From contig CAZOQP010000001.1 in assembly GCA_964582295.1 (NCBI GenBank), forward strand, positions 148,754 through 212,753: 64,000 nt of DNA. The letters run 5' to 3'. Shown one piece after another: positions 5,231-53,976 of this stretch (position 1 is the first letter of the stretch; every line of letters starts with the position of its first letter). This stretch comes from an uncultured Candidatus Saccharibacteria bacterium (GTDB lineage Bacteria; Patescibacteriota; Minisyncoccia; Phycocordibacterales; Zambryskibacteraceae). The notes under the pieces are model-generated. The model worked only from the letters and a program-made list of their open reading frames with translations. It did not search any database and was not told the DNA's origin. Position numbers and translations under genes: made by a program.

Positions 5231-5302
5231 TGCTCCCGAGAGGAATTGAACCTCTATTACAAGCTTCGGAAGCTTGCGTCCTATCCTTTGAACGACGGAA
5301 GC
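5231..5302 (-). tRNA. tRNA-Arg (anticodon CCG)
   Basis: Cloverleaf folded by hand: acceptor GCTTCCG/CGGGAGC, anticodon loop TTCCGAA, T-loop TTCAATT; no encoded CCA. Confidence 0.7.
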
Positions 5303-5312
5303 GGATTGAATG

Positions 5313-5383
5313 TGCCCCCACTAGGAATCGGACCTAGATCAATTGCTTAAAAGGCAACTGCTCTACCATTGAGCTATGAGGGC
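5313..5383 (-). tRNA. tRNA-Lys (anticodon TTT)
   Basis: GCCCTCATAGCTCAATGGTAGAGC...; anticodon loop CTTTTAA; T-arm CTAGG-TCCGATT-CCTAG. Confidence 0.7.
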
Positions 5384-5613
5384 AAAATCTTTTCAAGAAA
5401 CCTTCTCCCCGCTGCTGTTTTAAAGTATTTTTCTCTGTTGCGGGCAGTGTCAAAAGTATCATATTCCTCTTTATATACAACCTTCCACTCCCTCCCGTTT
5501 CTTGTAGAGCGGGTATGTCCACCCTGATGCTCTTTAAGTCTTCTTACGATGTTATTACTAACTCCTTTGTAAAGTTTTCCGTCGCGATTTTTGATTACAT
5601 ATACGGTGTACAT
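5374..5613 (-). CDS. GIY-YIG nuclease domain protein (UPF0213/YhbQ-like)
   Basis: MYTVYVIKNRDGKLYKGVSNN...RRLKEH is a classic GIY-YIG core; C-terminus overlaps tRNA-Lys 5' end by ~10 nt. Confidence 0.7.
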   Translation of the reverse strand: MYTVYVIKNRDGKLYKGVSNNIVRRLKEHQGGHTRSTRNGREWKVVYKEEYDTFDTARNREKYFKTAAGRRFLEKILPS

Positions 5614-5671
5614 TTAGAAGATCTACCATTGAGCCCCGCCTGAATGACTTCAGTCGGGCAGGTATGAGGGC
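5614..5671 (-). repeat. partial duplicate of tRNA-Lys 5' end (positions 1-22) interrupted by a 28-nt hairpin insert
   Basis: GCCCTCATA + [28 nt] + GCTCAATGGTAGA matches tRNA-Lys 5' half, then diverges into GIY-YIG start codon. Confidence 0.6.
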
Positions 5672-5714
5672 GTGCGCTCCAGCTTATAGCTTGAAGCGTA
5701 AAGCTTCAAGGTGT

Positions 5715-6119
5715 TTAAAGCGGCAGGTCAAAGGCCAGGAAGCCGGCACCTGTCAGGAGGAGGGAAATAAGAATGGCGATAATGAGGGTGTAAAAAGTGA
5801 TGTCCCGGGACACGAGCACATCTTCTTTGTATTCCACCAGCCACTCTTTTGCTGTAAGCAGAAGAAGACCTAAGGCGGCGTACTGTGTGAAAAGACCGAG
5901 GATTAAAAGAACGCCGCCGATTATTTCTGCCAGACCGAGCGCCATCGTCCATTCTCTGGCAGGAGCGAAACGGATAGCCCGCATGAATATCATCCATCTT
6001 TCGCGCTCTCGGGTGAGCTTCAAATATCCGGTATTCAGAAATATAAAACCTACCACCAGGCGGAGAAGCAGGGGTGTCAGAAGGCCAAAAGACAGCAGTT
6101 CGGGAAAAGGATTAAGCAT
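5715..6119 (-). CDS. DoxX family membrane protein
   Basis: Four TM helices, DoxX-like hydrophobic pattern. Confidence 0.6.
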   Translation of the reverse strand: MLNPFPELLSFGLLTPLLLRLVVGFIFLNTGYLKLTRERERWMIFMRAIRFAPAREWTMALGLAEIIGGVLLILGLFTQYAALGLLLLTAKEWLVEYKEDVLVSRDITFYTLIIAILISLLLTGAGFLAFDLPL

Positions 6120-6140
6120 TGGTGTATTCTAACATGCACT

Positions 6141-6638
6141 ATGAAACTGGCAGTAATTTTGCTCGATATCAGGAGCTCCGAGAATGCAGGAGCCATTTGC
6201 CGCACGGCTGAATGCGCCGGATTTGCCGAAATGTATTGTGTTGGCACCACGCCTGGTCCCAAAGATCGTTTCGGAAGGGAGAACAAAGCTTTTACAAAAG
6301 CATCTCTCGGTGCTGAGAAAAATATTTTGGTGGAGCACTTCAAAGATTTTTATCCGCTTCTAAAAAAACTCAAAAAACCTGCCCGCCCTGGCGGGCGTTC
6401 GGGCGGGGAGAAGTTCACTGTTGTTGCTCTTGAGCAAAGTAAGAAGGCAATTGATTACAGAAAATTAAAAGTTAAGGGGAATACGGCCGTGATACTCGGC
6501 AACGAAGTTTCAGGCATTCCCGCCGCAGTTCTTTCAAAGGCGGATTATATTGCCCAAATACCTTTGAAAGGTAAAAAGGAATCTCTTAATGTTTCAGTTG
6601 CATTCGGTATTGCCGCTTTTTCTTTGAACGACCGCTAG
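6141..6638 (+). CDS. SpoU-family tRNA/rRNA 2'-O-methyltransferase (TrmH/TrmL-like) carrying in-frame palindromic insert
   Basis: LDIRSSENAGAICRTAECAGF, AVILGNEVSGIP and SLNVSVAFGIA SPOUT motifs; residues KKPARPGGRSGGE encoded by repeat at 6370-6409. Confidence 0.75.
   Translation: MKLAVILLDIRSSENAGAICRTAECAGFAEMYCVGTTPGPKDRFGRENKAFTKASLGAEKNILVEHFKDFYPLLKKLKKPARPGGRSGGEKFTVVALEQSKKAIDYRKLKVKGNTAVILGNEVSGIPAAVLSKADYIAQIPLKGKKESLNVSVAFGIAAFSLNDR
6370..6409 (+). repeat. 40-nt GC-rich palindromic repeat, copy A (in frame within SpoU MTase)
   Basis: tcaaaaaacctgcccgccctggcgggcgttcgggcgggga; identical to reverse complement of 7606-7645. Confidence 0.9.
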
Positions 6639-7204
6639 TCCTTTTTATTATCTTCCGTGATATCTGAAAAACGGTCTCGGGCGAATCGCATACCCACGAT
6701 GTTCACCGCCACAAAAAGAAGAGCGAATACTATGAAGCCGATCTTTATATCTGCCACATGATTTTCAAGTATGGAGAGTGAGCCGACGCTTCGTGCAAGA
6801 AGGAACACAATGATCGCCCACAAGCATGAGCCGAGGAGACTGGCGGCTGCCGCTTTAGGCCAAGGCATTTTGAACATTCCTGCGGCGAGCTGGCTTACCA
6901 TGCCGGTGCCATGAATGAACTTGGACCAAAAAATTATCTTGAATTCGTGCCGTTTGATAGCCCGACCTATTTTATGTAAACGCTCAGGGTCTTTACTTAC
7001 AATCCATAGTTTCTCTACACGTTTTTCTCCCAAGAATCGGGCGGTGAAGAACCAGATAGCATCTGTAATAACGATACCCAGTGTTGATGCGGAAAATATC
7101 CACGGAAGTGATGCTTGTCCGTGGACGCCCAGGTACATTATCGGGATAAGCGCTCCGCTTCCCATAAAACAAATAGTTGCGATGATGATTAGGGGTGAGA
7201 GCAT
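6635..7204 (-). CDS. DedA/SNARE-associated family membrane protein
   Basis: Hydrophobic profile and conserved DedA-like motifs. Confidence 0.6.
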   Translation of the reverse strand: MLSPLIIIATICFMGSGALIPIMYLGVHGQASLPWIFSASTLGIVITDAIWFFTARFLGEKRVEKLWIVSKDPERLHKIGRAIKRHEFKIIFWSKFIHGTGMVSQLAAGMFKMPWPKAAAASLLGSCLWAIIVFLLARSVGSLSILENHVADIKIGFIVFALLFVAVNIVGMRFARDRFSDITEDNKKD

Positions 7205-7229
7205 ATGTTTATAAGCTCATTTTATCCCA

Positions 7230-8168
7230 CTAACTGTATTTTTTCTGGTGAGCGGGACAGAAGTGTCCGCTCCGTTGTCCGAAAAGGCCGCGGGTGATCG
7301 TACCGAAGCATAGACGCTTAGAGCACCGGCTTCCTGTCTTCTGATAAGCATTATGTTTTTCCTGGAATTTCCCGCGTTCGCCTTTTATATTCCTGTAATC
7401 GGACATTGAGTCTCCACCGAAATCTATCCCCGCACGCAGAACTTTTTTCATGGCAGCGTAGAGATTTTTAAGCGCGAGGAGGGGGATGCGGGAGGGGATG
7501 GAGCTTGGGTGAATAGAAGAGAGCCACAGCATCTCATCTGAATAAATATTTCCAACTCCTGCAATGAGTTCCTGGTCCATAAGTGCCTGCTTTATGGGAC
7601 GCGTTTCCCCGCCCGAACGCCCGCCAGGGCGGGCAGGTTTTTTGATTATTTCCGAGAATTTTTGGAAAGAAATCTCCAGCGCATCTGGCCCCAGGTGGGC
7701 AAGCTCCTTATCTTCTCCGAATTCTCCCGTATCAATAAGAGTTACTGTTGCGAATTTGCGCATATCCGAGAAAGCCAGGTGTTTTCCGCCAGATAGAATG
7801 AACACAAGATGAAGAAAGCGATTGAAAGGATCGGCGAGAGGCCCTTTTTCCATTGGCGCCCATGTATTTTCGGATCTTTTGAATTTGAATTTTCCGAAAA
7901 GCAGATGCCCTGTCATTTTCATATGTATGAGGATGGTTTTCTTGCCTGCCAATTCCACTAGAATGTTCTTGCCTCGGCGTCTGGCACGAAGAATTTTTTG
8001 GCCGGATATTTCTTTTTTGAATTTTTTGAAAAAGAGGGGATTTTTTACATTGTCTTTGCCTATATAAAACGGGCTGTTGTAATCTGTCCAGACATCCAAT
8101 ATCCGCCGACCCTTAACGGTTTCGTTTAGTCCATCCACGGTCGTCTGCACTTCAGGAAGTTCGGGCAT
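7230..8168 (-). CDS. fpg: formamidopyrimidine-DNA glycosylase (Fpg/MutM) carrying in-frame palindromic insert
   Basis: N-terminal MPELPEVQT, H2TH region, C-terminal zinc finger; residues KKPARPGGRSGGE encoded by repeat at 7606-7645. Confidence 0.8.
   Translation of the reverse strand: MPELPEVQTTVDGLNETVKGRRILDVWTDYNSPFYIGKDNVKNPLFFKKFKKEISGQKILRARRRGKNILVELAGKKTILIHMKMTGHLLFGKFKFKRSENTWAPMEKGPLADPFNRFLHLVFILSGGKHLAFSDMRKFATVTLIDTGEFGEDKELAHLGPDALEISFQKFSEIIKKPARPGGRSGGETRPIKQALMDQELIAGVGNIYSDEMLWLSSIHPSSIPSRIPLLALKNLYAAMKKVLRAGIDFGGDSMSDYRNIKGERGKFQEKHNAYQKTGSRCSKRLCFGTITRGLFGQRSGHFCPAHQKKYS
7606..7645 (-). repeat. 40-nt GC-rich palindromic repeat, copy B (in frame within Fpg)
   Basis: Reverse complement identical to 6370-6409. 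Confidence 0.9.
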
Positions 8169-8194
8169 TTTTGGGGTCTTTAAATTGGCCTACG

Positions 8195-9442
8195 TTAGCC
8201 ATTCTTGAGGATATTTTGCAATTCTTCACGCGCTACCTCTTCATCGCTCCAGGGGATCTTTTTGCCGTTCGCACCCATGATATAAGGATCGGTGCCCTTG
8301 CCTGTAATAAGAACAATCGTGTTCTTATTACAGGCAAGGGCATGTCGAAGGGCTTGCGCGATAGCTTCACGGCGATCCATTATTATTCGCGGCTCCTTTT
8401 TCATATCACTCGTCATGTCACGCAGGATTTTTTCCGGCTCTTCATCATATGGGTCTTCGTTGGTGAGAATTATCTCGTCGCAATATTCATCGGCGATCTT
8501 TCCCATGACCGGACGCTTCCATGTGTCGCGCCCTCCGCCTGTATTTCCGAGAACGCATATCAATTTCCTTTTAGAAATTGACTCCGACATATTCGGAGGA
8601 GTAAATGCTTTATAAAGCGCTTCAAGCGAACCGGGTGTATGAGCGTAGTCCACCACTACATCAAATTTCTGTTCATCCGATATTTTTACGAATTTCACTC
8701 GGCCAGGGATTGACGTAAGTGATGAAATACCTTTTGTGATAATTTCCCCGGAAATTCCCTGGCTTTTTGCGAATGCTTCAGCAAGCCCTGCATTTATTTT
8801 CATAAAATCTCCTGGTATCGGGGGATTTAGATGGGTATCGGCAAGGTGGAAGGCAATCTTATTTTCCGCCTCGTACTGAAGGAACTTTTCTCCGTGTTCG
8901 TTGTCACAATTTGAAATGATCGTTCGCGGCCTCTTGGATGAACGTGCTAAAAGCTTTGGCAACTCAAGCTTCGCTTCAAGGTATTTTTCAAATGAACCAT
9001 GGGATTCTATGTGCTCCGGCTCAAGCCCTGTGAATATAACGGCATTAAGCTCTAAAAAACGGTGACGTGATTGCTTGATACCTTCGGATGTCATCTCCAT
9101 TACCACCCAGTCGCATTTTGCTTCCACTGCATCTCCTAGGAACTTCTGGACGAAAAATCGGCCTGGCACGGACATTTTGAAAAGATTGGGTCGAGATTCG
9201 CTCCCTATTTTGAAACGGATGGTATTTAGGACTGCTGTTTTAAGACCTGCCGCTTCCAAAACAGCATTTACGAATTCGGTGGTTGAGCTTTTGCCTTTTG
9301 TGCCCGTTATGGCAAGCACTTTTATATTGCTAGAAGGAAAACCGAAGGCAATCGCAGAAAGAAAAGCCCAAAGGAAGTGATATAACGGTCGGAAAATATC
9401 CGCTATTTGCTTGGGAATGATTTTTTTCGCGAGTTGTAGCAT
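8195..9442 (-). CDS. murE: UDP-N-acetylmuramoyl-tripeptide synthetase (Mur ligase, MurE-like)
   Basis: Mur ligase P-loop ITGTKGKSSTT, DYAHTP, C-terminal Mur ligase domain. Confidence 0.75.
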   Translation of the reverse strand: MLQLAKKIIPKQIADIFRPLYHFLWAFLSAIAFGFPSSNIKVLAITGTKGKSSTTEFVNAVLEAAGLKTAVLNTIRFKIGSESRPNLFKMSVPGRFFVQKFLGDAVEAKCDWVVMEMTSEGIKQSRHRFLELNAVIFTGLEPEHIESHGSFEKYLEAKLELPKLLARSSKRPRTIISNCDNEHGEKFLQYEAENKIAFHLADTHLNPPIPGDFMKINAGLAEAFAKSQGISGEIITKGISSLTSIPGRVKFVKISDEQKFDVVVDYAHTPGSLEALYKAFTPPNMSESISKRKLICVLGNTGGGRDTWKRPVMGKIADEYCDEIILTNEDPYDEEPEKILRDMTSDMKKEPRIIMDRREAIAQALRHALACNKNTIVLITGKGTDPYIMGANGKKIPWSDEEVAREELQNILKNG

Positions 9443-27124: not shown

Positions 27125-27264
27125 CGCTCGGGGTATTCTCTGAAAATTGGAAGCACGCACTCAGACACAAAAAGAGACCACTCCGGGGCGTGCCCCGGGT
27201 CTTAGTCTCTTTTCGTGTCTGAGTGCTTTACTCAAAAAACATTTTCAGAGAATACCCCTCGCTC
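27125..27264. repeat. long nested palindromic repeat, copy 1 (TIR-A plus conserved core B)
   Basis: ~140-nt near-perfect palindrome centred on ccggggcgtgccccgg; contains core aaaaagagaccactccggggcg...gtcttagtctctttt. Confidence 0.8.
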
Positions 27265-39624: not shown

Positions 39625-39693
39625 GCAACCTGGCTAAAAAGAGACCACTCCGGGGCGTTTGCCCAAGTCTTAGTCTCTTTTTAGCCAGGTTGC
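39625..39693. repeat. nested palindromic repeat, copy 2 (core B with different outer arms)
   Basis: gcaacctggctaaaaagagaccactccggggcgtttgcccaagtcttagtctctttttagccaggttgc. Confidence 0.8.
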
Positions 39694-49002: not shown

Positions 49003-49082
49003 GTCGCTCGGGAATTCTGTAAAAAGAGATCACTCCGGGGCGTTTGCCCAAGTCTTAGTCTCTTTTTACAGAATTCCCTCGC
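49003..49082. repeat. nested palindromic repeat, copy 3 (TIR-A variant plus core B)
   Basis: gtcgctcgggaattctgtaaaaagagatcactccggggcgtttgcccaagtcttagtctctttttacagaattccctcgc. Confidence 0.8.
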
Positions 49083-53787: not shown

Positions 53788-53976
53788 AAACCCAGAAACC
53801 ACCTTTTTAAAGCGGGCTCAAAAGCCTCCGTCGGTCGAAAATAATAGTCACCTCGTTTAACGGAAAAGAGGCAACTCGTCCCGCCTTGGCGGGACTCAGA
53901 CACTCCTCTTTTCCTACTCGGCTCGTTATTTTCAGATCGACTTCGCTGATGCTTTAAAAAGGTGGTTTCTGGGTTT
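53788..53976. repeat. ~190-nt imperfect palindrome centred on gtcccgccttggcgggac, between divergent genes
   Basis: aaacccagaaaccacctttttaaagc ... gctttaaaaaggtggtttctgggttt outer arms; nested inner inverted repeats. Confidence 0.7.

Follow-up and report, generated by a model that had tools for sequence, protein, structure and literature searches.

How does one and the same GC-rich sequence come to be read in the same frame within two genes of unrelated function? The question is raised by a 64,000-nucleotide stretch of DNA from an uncultured Candidatus Saccharibacteria bacterium (contig CAZOQP010000001.1, positions 148,754 to 212,753; the whole stretch is called the window below), in which identical hairpin-forming inserts are present in the genes for a SpoU/TrmH-family RNA 2'-O-methyltransferase (SpoU) and for the formamidopyrimidine-DNA glycosylase Fpg. 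The two inserts are probably members of a widespread, non-autonomous family of GC-rich hairpin repeats of Patescibacteria (the candidate phyla radiation, CPR), recently copied within the genome. Patescibacteria have tiny, gene-dense genomes and account for a large share of bacterial diversity, and a hairpin of the size of repetitive extragenic palindromic (REP) elements that is recurrently in frame in their core genes supplies new protein loops and also gives rise to artefacts in annotation and alignment.

An identical insert in SpoU and fpg

The sequence-only reading that drew attention to the locus reported a 40-mer, TCAAAAAACCTGCCCGCCCTGGCGGGCGTTCGGGCGGGGA, at 6370-6409 of the forward strand and as the exact reverse complement at 7606-7645. 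Both copies were found there, the number of matches in the window stays at two when up to three mismatches are allowed, and 100 dinucleotide-preserving shuffles gave none. The inverted repeat around the 40-mer reaches 46 nt at 96% identity and its two copies are 1196 nt apart. Both host open reading frames (ORFs) translate the 40-mer as KKPARPGGRSGGE, also as reported, while the 13-14 residues then taken to be inserted are too many: orthologue alignments for Fpg and SpoU confine the insert proper to the central 30 nt, CCTGCCCGCCCTGGCGGGCGTTCGGGCGGG, which encodes the 10 aa PARPGGRSGG. As KK and E on either side are conserved in orthologues that have no insert, the adjoining TCAAAAAA and GA are host codons and not part of the element. 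The pre-insertion site, TCAAAAAA^GA (8+2 nt), is identical in the two genes, and the junctions are without duplication. With 26 of its 30 nucleotides being G or C (about 46% for the window), the 30-mer is stop-free in all six frames, so that the same frame in both hosts would be met in about 1 case in 6 by chance alone. The RNA fold of the 30-mer has an energy of -19 kcal/mol. Its outer stem, CCTGCCCG/CGGGCGGG, is 8 bp long with one T.G pair, its inner hairpin is CCC-TGGC-GGG and the bulge on the 3' side is CGTT, and this replaces the palindromic core gcccgcc-ctg-gcgggc proposed earlier; a core pattern whose spacing is unlike that of the real core, CCCGCCNNNGGCGGG, gave no match.

Origin by insertion is borne out by the orthologues. 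The nearest homologues of both host proteins have names from Parcubacteria, Paceibacterota, Minisyncoccia or Patescibacteria. The Fpg insert is missing in all 24 of the nearest aligned orthologues, which without exception read KK-E(x)RPIKQ, and the fpg site is also empty in a syntenic relative, a 4.8-kb contig (L001) to which SpoU comparisons return below. Most SpoU orthologues read KLKK-E with no insert at the point where the window protein has ten residues between. Window Fpg matches Fpg chains in the PDB with E about 1e-30, and in an alignment with Lactococcus Fpg (PDB 1tdz) there is a gap at the position of the insert, immediately ahead of the xIKxxLxDQ helix. AlphaFold models made from the orthologue alignments have a mean predicted local distance difference test (pLDDT) score of 90.4 for Fpg and 90.5 for SpoU, and in both confidence drops only around the inserts, to 59 for the 181-190 block of Fpg and to 64 for the 81-90 block of SpoU. 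The Fpg block is modelled as a loop from helix 168-175 to helix 192-197, and the SpoU block as a loop from helix 70-78 to strand 93-97. From the low-pLDDT blocks together with the 1tdz gap, both inserts are read as predicted loop insertions. The location first suggested for Fpg, a loop between the H2TH region and the conserved motif, was approximately right as regards the loop ahead of the helix, with the correction that the site falls within the Pfam H2TH domain, towards the N-terminal end. Seven Fpg orthologues (P0008, P0009, P0010, P0012, P0014, P0018 and P0051) have other lineage-specific insertions, of 6-17 aa, at three further positions; examples from related CPR genomes are NNPKSKKTGR, LNPKLASRVGRASKP and TPTTFSSKNLKGQ.

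Table 1. Positions in the window of the hairpin copies, their host genes and the adjoining features
Feature	Position	Strand	Remarks
Intact tRNA-Lys(UUU) gene	5312-5383		tRNA call
GIY-YIG nuclease ORF, 79 aa	5374..5613	-	Pfam PF01541, E=2.6e-14; last codons overlap the tRNA-Lys 5' end
22-nt duplicate of tRNA-Lys(UUU) nt 1-22, split by 28-nt hairpin	5622..5671	-	Hairpin between tRNA nt 9 and 10
Third family copy, 28 nt, CCTGCCCGACTGAAGTCATTCAGGCGGG	5635..5662	-	Intergenic; from a termini search without flank constraints
SpoU/TrmH-family RNA 2'-O-methyltransferase, 165 aa (host gene 1)	6141..6638	+	Pfam PF00588 SpoU_methylase, E=1.2e-27
Host 5' flank TCAAAAAA of SpoU copy (Leu-Lys-Lys codons)	6370..6377	+	GA at 6408-6409; KLKK and E conserved
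30-nt hairpin element CCTGCCCGCCCTGGCGGGCGTTCGGGCGGG in SpoU/TrmH gene	6378..6407	+	PARPGGRSGG, residues 80-89, in frame
VTT/DedA-type membrane gene between the hosts	6635-7204	-	
Fpg/MutM, formamidopyrimidine-DNA glycosylase, 312 aa (host gene 2)	7230..8168	-	Pfam PF01149 Fapy_DNA_glyco and PF06831 H2TH
30-nt hairpin element, identical, in fpg	7608..7637	-	PARPGGRSGG, residues 178-187, in frame
Host 5' flank TCAAAAAA of fpg copy (Ile-Lys-Lys codons)	7638..7645	-	GA at 7606-7607 opens Glu codon; KK-E conserved

Perfect inverted repeats bound 6410-7605, and they might be thought the ends (40-46 nt) of an invertible 1.2-kb segment, inversion of which would be expected to yield in-frame SpoU-Fpg chimeras, or else a product of faulty assembly. 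Either is highly improbable. A Pfam search reveals no recombinase gene nearby, both chimeras would destroy conserved domains, and both ORFs are intact and collinear with their orthologues except for the insert. The occurrence of the family in hundreds of independent assemblies argues against an assembly artefact.

A hairpin family and its reading frame

The family to which the inserts are assigned is defined by termini CCTGCCCG...GGCGGG (CCWGCCCG/GGCGGG) around a variable inner hairpin and by a length of 28-42 nt, and all three window copies have these termini, an inner hairpin, a length in this range and precise insertion without duplication. The third copy lies outside genes, its length is no multiple of 3, and it is similar to family members in loci L061 and L081. 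Beyond the three, a fuzzy scan of the window that tolerated 2+1 mismatches in the termini brought up nothing clearly separable from shuffled sequence, and at the elements themselves Rfam has no family, whether the cut-off is the gathering threshold or E up to 10. The wider search bore out the idea that further copies exist, with at least 240 public loci in genome and metagenome collections, and it did so for the family and not for the variant: the window variant's 24-mer core has 0 exact matches in GTDB species-representative genomes or JGI metagenomes. As that variant is unmatched there and its copies in SpoU and fpg are identical, it is private to the lineage and the duplication must be recent. 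A full-text literature search on the element, its peptide strings and palindromic or REP elements in CPR turned up no published description of the hairpin family, which is not proof of novelty.

The samples of genomes and metagenomes are not random and their counts are lower bounds; ORF calls in the family loci are mechanical, and taxon labels are public record titles tallied by reading, a few of which (Gammaproteobacteria, Planctomycetota) may be mis-binned. In the genome collection the search pattern was AAAARCCWGCCCG-N14-28-GGCGGGGA, so that A-run and GA flanks were imposed along with the termini, and at least 119 loci match. The largest named group among the genome matches listed is formed by classes of Patescibacteria (Paceibacterota, Nomura-, Moran- and Saccharibacteria, Microgenomates); the others listed are a few Bacteroidota metagenome-assembled genomes (MAGs) with many copies and scattered single matches in other phyla, and how far the family extends beyond Patescibacteria and those MAGs is uncertain.

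Element interiors, on which the search pattern places no such constraint, sort into recurring subfamilies. The most common interior among the matches listed, subfamily A, is that of the 36-mer CCTGCCCGCAATGCTWCGCAWAGCGWTGCAGGCGGG. Subfamily B shares with the window element the stem, inner-hairpin and bulge architecture together with a 12-nt 3' segment, CGTTCGGGCGGG, which is present in members L024 and L044; the latter is a copy in a Nomurabacteria pth gene, with peptide PARPGDTSRSGG. Across 63 distinct 36-mers a two-stem structure, ....(((((...(((((((...)))))))..))))), is supported by covariation, mainly at a single pair, 16-26, which is UA in 34 sequences, AU in 21 and GC in 3, and none of 500 shuffles reaches the covariation score of this register. 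For subfamily A, covariation lends no support to a register in which the hairpin is fully nested.

In loci with Patescibacteria titles nearly every match is in a long ORF, in the frame CCT GCC CGC (Pro-Ala-Arg) and ending in Gly-Gly. Hosts with an in-frame copy include FtsK, topoisomerase I (TopA), a DHH phosphoesterase, an M50 protease, PBP2, IleRS/ValRS, ArgRS, RmlD, Pth, ScpB, DNA polymerase I (PolA), RecR, MurB and, at three loci, CTP synthase (pyrG), and one RpoB gene has three copies. The signature CCTGCCCG...GGCGGG, taken with the peptide PAR...GG, can be used to mask or to track the inserts. In Bacteroidota MAGs JAZKBF01, JAZJZM01 and JAIOQD01 (among their loci are L015, L017, L030, L038, L040, L041, L051, L063, L075 and L077) there are many subfamily-B hairpins (CCTGCCCGAMTGA...TCRTTCGTTCGGGCGGG) per genome, located within a longer conserved repeat, mostly outside long ORFs and terminator-like on the opposite strand. 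Thirteen loci of IMG/VR contigs classed as viral (such as L243, L244, L247, L249 and L251) have several subfamily-A copies each, many of which have TCTGTGTCC on either side and are not within long ORFs; the contigs may be a vehicle for spread among CPR lineages, or may be misclassified CPR DNA.

Since flanks were imposed in the genome search, length, frame and target are better judged from the metagenome collection, which was scanned with the subfamily-A core alone and provided at least 120 loci, with 123 copies listed in 696 kb. Length is exactly 36 nt in 111 of the 123. Copies are both intergenic and intragenic, and of the 60 listed within ORFs of at least 150 aa, 41 have the frame PAR...GG, with 1-5 for each other frame; 40 of these 41 are 36 nt long. 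With other ORF-length cut-offs the number of in-frame PAR...GG copies in long ORFs varies from 27 to 51 of the 123, and the 37-nt variants are almost all outside long ORFs in that frame. The PAR...GG peptide of subfamily A is hydrophilic and bounded by Pro and Gly; of the alternative frames two are hydrophobic and two have stop codons. That ORF-hosted copies are nearly all multiples of 3 argues that the inserts are translated and not removed, and the frame bias would be what purifying selection on random insertions leaves behind. No strict target and no target duplication is apparent among the listed copies: the base at -1 is A in 69 of the 123, the next base 3' is C or G in 80, and an A-run of at least 4 precedes about 8%. 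Tandem copies are present in L171 and L165.

Comparison of orthologues shows gain or loss at single sites. The L001 SpoU gene has an insert at the same nucleotide position as in the window, CCAGCCCGACAGAAAGGTTGTTCTGGCGGG (peptide PARQKGCSGG), and so has SpoU of a Falkowbacteria genome (L002), with CCTGCCCGCAACGCCAGCGCTATCGTGGCAGGCGGG (peptide PARNASAIVAGG); all three inserts have the termini CCWGCCCG...GGCGGG in common and fold as hairpins. The protein from L001 (P0122) has the insert and a close orthologue (P0123) does not, and apart from a clean gap of 10 residues the two agree at 142 of 162 positions; window SpoU is 71% identical to the L001 lineage, and so the L001 insertion is much younger than its split from the window lineage. 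The presence/absence polymorphism expected of inserted DNA is thereby found within SpoU, and apparently insertion has struck this one nucleotide position separately in no fewer than three lineages. One site of CTP synthase, GKK^E, holds different variants in L047 and L081, and by inspection the flanks of the L185 hairpin, ...YYGKK^EIIERHRHRYEVN, mark the same site, while L071 has its element at FEK^DP, a site that is empty in L047 and L081. The window provides three pairs of empty and filled sites without duplication, and CTP synthase a fourth.

These data also bear on the notion that KKPAR...GGE is a protein motif, ancestral or convergently selected, and not inserted DNA. Related peptides at the one SpoU position in L001 and L002, with divergent nucleotides, are what it would lead one to expect. 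None of the 24 Fpg orthologues has the peptide, however, and most SpoU orthologues are without it too, one of them 88% identical to the L001 protein; the window copies are identical at 40 of 40 nt in unrelated genes, the same DNA is also intergenic and in other frames, one stem base pair covaries and the peptide is in loops of low model confidence. The protein-motif explanation is very improbable and effectively refuted by these data. The SpoU loop is a hotspot that hairpins of more than one family have entered: the SpoU gene of L256 (1001-1507) has in the same loop, in frame, a different GC-rich hairpin, GTCCCGACGCAAGGTCGGGATCCCGACCGAAGCGTCGGGAC (GTCCCGAC...GTCGGGAC), of -33 kcal/mol and with the peptide VPTQGRDPDRSVGT, and P0137 (L255) has yet another insert there.

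How copies may be made and kept

On the best-supported account, in which mobility is the cause, insertion of the family would be precise, without target-site duplication, usually between A and G and often after an A-run. A copy within a gene would survive only if its length is a multiple of 3, its site is a surface loop and its frame is the Pro...Gly-Gly one (PAR...GG), selection filtering the copies so that those in frame, in loops and in a benign frame persist in genes. In the window, copying within the genome would have been recent and between two TCAAAAAA^GA sites 1.2 kb apart, most likely either from SpoU to fpg or from one master copy to both. Candidate routes for the copying are an enzyme acting on the hairpin, microhomology template switching and installation associated with a GIY-YIG break.

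Several observations weigh against an explanation by a mobile family. The 64-kb window has just 3 copies, all within 2 kb of each other. No transposase family is recurrent among the 121 ORFs that are within 250 nt of elements. Several of the flank-constrained genome matches in unrelated phyla are probably due to chance. Insertion bias, and not selection, could be the source of the frame preference, and insertion at the same SpoU site in three lineages could in principle reflect an ancient insertion followed by precise losses. Finally, the 8+2 nt flank common to the two intragenic sites, which are inverted and 1.2 kb apart, fits enzyme-free templated copying.

Such copying would need no dedicated enzyme and would take place during replication, by a template switch guided by microhomology or by gene conversion over a short tract: a nascent strand ending in TCAAAAAA at fpg would anneal to the inverted SpoU site, copy the hairpin and return via GA. 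As the origin of the fpg copy this is possible, though on balance doubtful. The shared 8 nt and 2 nt, the inverted orientation and the distance of only 1196 nt suit it well, and A-run/GA flanks on many family copies elsewhere would make suitable microhomology donors common. Quasi-palindrome template-switch mutagenesis is a known source of perfect inverted repeats, by copying between nearby inverted sites via short microhomologies, and both the fpg/SpoU pair and a second feature of the window fit its pattern. That feature is a perfect palindrome of 23+4+23 nt at 8293-8342 in a Mur-ligase ORF, of the kind that marks templated copying by fold-back. In one arm is the coding sequence for the conserved motif IVLITGKG; the other, the reverse complement of that sequence, reads ALACNKNT against AKSGD in the syntenic L001 orthologue. 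It looks like a fold-back template-switch conversion kept in frame, and it makes template switching in this genome plausible. The return step would nevertheless depend on only 2 nt, and the window has five more TCAAAAAAGA sites, all of them empty, as are 27 AAAAAAGA sites. The flanks of the third window copy, CATA^GCTC, are unrelated, and most of the listed flank-unbiased copies are not preceded by an A-run. Template switching would explain spread and not the origin of the family or the conservation of its termini across classes, and a family with conserved termini over many classes and at hundreds of unrelated sites is likewise left unexplained by quasi-palindrome mutagenesis.

A different route is suggested by the surroundings of the third copy. 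It ends 22 nt upstream of the start codon of the GIY-YIG gene and it interrupts the duplicated 5' end of the adjacent tRNA gene; with the hairpin removed, the rejoined flanks match tRNA-Lys nt 1-24 at 23 of 24 positions. The order of the module, split tRNA 5' duplicate, GIY-YIG ORF, intact tRNA, recurs in L150 (23/24) and L241 (24/24), where the hairpin follows nt 12 and nt 11 respectively, and, in degenerate form, L200 (14/24), with differences in tRNA, in hairpin orientation (both are seen) and in hairpin subfamily. GIY-YIG homologues are directly upstream of tRNA-Gln, -Glu or -Lys in six other loci with an element (L143, L150, L185, L200, L232 and L241). How short hairpin repeats move is only partly answered for REP elements, and the recurrent module is a testable candidate.

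Small homing-type nucleases of this kind may accordingly be tied to the hairpins, by nicking or cutting at tRNA nt 9-12 and, off target, at A|G in ORFs, where a hairpin copy would then be put into the break and abolish the site, or by mobilising the hairpin, and we regard this as unlikely but with several points in its favour. The 696 kb sampled without flank bias contain 8 homologues of the window nuclease, and every one of them is within 361 nt of an element, with none elsewhere in those loci; by calculation about 1.1 would be expected so close. GIY-YIG is the commonest Pfam family among the 121 neighbouring ORFs (5 members), no transposase family recurs there, and the tRNA duplicate is split at nt 9-12 in the window, L150, L241 and L200. 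All three window copies are within 2.3 kb of the only GIY-YIG gene in the window. The association is real. It may be mechanistic, or both features may merely gather in the scarce neutral intergenic DNA beside tRNA genes. More than 90% of the sampled loci have no GIY-YIG gene near the element, the tRNA duplicate in L232 is uninterrupted, the 79-aa protein has no recognisable DNA-binding domain, and no mechanism is known that would put a defined hairpin in place after a GIY-YIG cut.

Taken further, the same observations would allow a nuclease-hairpin system that remodels essential proteins across Patescibacteria, in which tRNA-adjacent GIY-YIG breaks are sealed by a templated 28-42-nt hairpin; the prospect is quite an unlikely one. 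Were it so, breaks would be at nt 9-12 of tRNA genes and at A|G sites in ORFs and the installed hairpin would destroy the target, with PAR...GG loops in RpoB, PolA, TopA, aminoacyl-tRNA synthetases, Fpg and SpoU being scars or immunity marks. Such a system would then count as a mobile element of a new class, its GIY-YIG enzyme taking the part proposed for REP-associated tyrosine transposases (RAYTs) with REPs.

Retention is a separate issue from copying. Both intragenic copies have the GC stem-loop and T-run of an intrinsic terminator, only in antisense to the host, and A-run-flanked intragenic copies might be retained because as antisense terminators they block read-through from convergent neighbours. 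The antisense-strand signal is a GC stem, AGG and then six T, and no terminator-like sites other than the two elements were called in 5300-8300; the SpoU gene and the VTT-fpg unit are convergent, with a 4-nt overlap. Among loci L003-L241, with crude ORF calls, a convergent downstream neighbour is present for 26 of 77 in-frame hosts against 17.5% of adjacent pairs. This enrichment is however equal for copies without A-runs, the A-run of at least 4 is as infrequent in the listed flank-unbiased sample as stated above, and the scan for terminators, with 2 sites, falls short of the mean of 3.4 in shuffled sequence. The fpg copy, about 1 kb downstream of the SpoU stop, would make for an inefficient terminator. 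As the reason for retention, antisense termination is decidedly unlikely; as a secondary function, judged from the stem and T-run, it is possible.

Relation to known elements and other repeats in the window

Among known systems, those closest in behaviour to the hairpin family are the Rickettsia palindromic elements (RPEs), and those closest in size and form are REP elements. As summarised in PMC3184786 and PMC10969869, RPE-1 to RPE-10 (Ogata et al. 2000) are selfish palindromic repeats in unrelated housekeeping ORFs, about 105-150 bp in length and restricted to Rickettsia. The likeness noted in the sequence-only reading holds for a selfish hairpin repeat that spreads in frame into unrelated ORFs, with a family peptide, tolerance at surface positions and intergenic copies as well. 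Membership of the RPEs, which that reading also implied, does not hold: homologues of the hosts are from Patescibacteria and not from Rickettsia or Rickettsiales, and the insert is 30 nt. The size difference alone means that there is no homology over the full length of an RPE. The family here is of 28-42 nt and belongs to Patescibacteria, some Bacteroidota MAGs also having relatives; its termini are CCTGCCCG...GGCGGG and its peptide is of 10-14 aa. The occurrence of selfish DNA within genes that code for proteins, known from Rickettsia, thus extends to a much smaller element in a different phylum.

With REP elements and the bacterial interspersed mosaic elements (BIMEs) that they form, the family has in common GC-rich imperfect hairpins of ~20-40 nt, covariation in the stem, many copies, absence of target-site duplication and sometimes tandem arrangement. 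REPs are extragenic by definition and have a 5' tetranucleotide of the GTAG type (PMC3184786). The 5' end here is in contrast CCTG (CCWG in sampled copies, these positions being fixed by the search patterns), and a large share of copies, 2 of 3 in the window, are intragenic and in frame. No gene resembling a RAYT (IS200/IS605-like, HUH Y1) recurs among the 121 neighbouring ORFs. Miniature inverted-repeat transposable elements were considered and set aside, as target-site duplication is absent at the four site pairs of the window and CTP synthase and no parent insertion sequence was found.

The GC clusters of yeast mitochondria and 'byp' elements are mobile GC-rich palindromic clusters of 30-50 nt that are also present inside protein-coding genes, and both are organellar. 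Their base composition is unlike that of the surrounding host DNA, as is that of the family here. Byp elements are skipped by the ribosome and their length is hence unconstrained, in contrast to the ORF-hosted copies here, whose lengths, nearly all multiples of 3, argue for translation. For the nuclease of the tRNA-linked module the counterpart is SegB of phage T4, and as far as the abstracts of PMC2988022 and PMC13096335 go, such proteins are free-standing GIY-YIG homing endonucleases in tRNA gene regions. The module resembles them in having a small GIY-YIG gene that adjoins a tRNA gene, with local duplication of the target, and a homing-type cassette is plausible. It differs in being on a bacterial chromosome, in a nuclease of 79 aa that corresponds to the catalytic domain alone, and in the tRNA 5' duplicate split by a hairpin, which is absent from those two abstracts.

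Two further repeats in the window are distinct from the family. The sequence-only reading had placed a related core at the centre of a large palindrome at 53880-53900. The sequence CCCGCCTTGGCGGG does exist, at 53880-53893, and it is part of a separate 190-nt intergenic palindrome, 53788-53976, that lies between divergent ORFs and has an RNA fold of -94.5 kcal/mol (z = -9.3) with the apex GUCCCGCCUUGGCGGGAC. This palindrome has no Rfam match and was rejected as a family member since it is without the family termini. The other is a 49-nt repeat, TAAAAAGAGAYCACTCCGGGGCGTTTGCCCAAGTCTTAGTCTCTTTTTA, with two copies that are 98% identical, at 39635-39683 and 49020-49068, and a shorter relative at about 27168-27212; all are intergenic, and each is bounded by a different, locus-specific inverted repeat of 10-12 nt, as if it were at the apex of a local hairpin.

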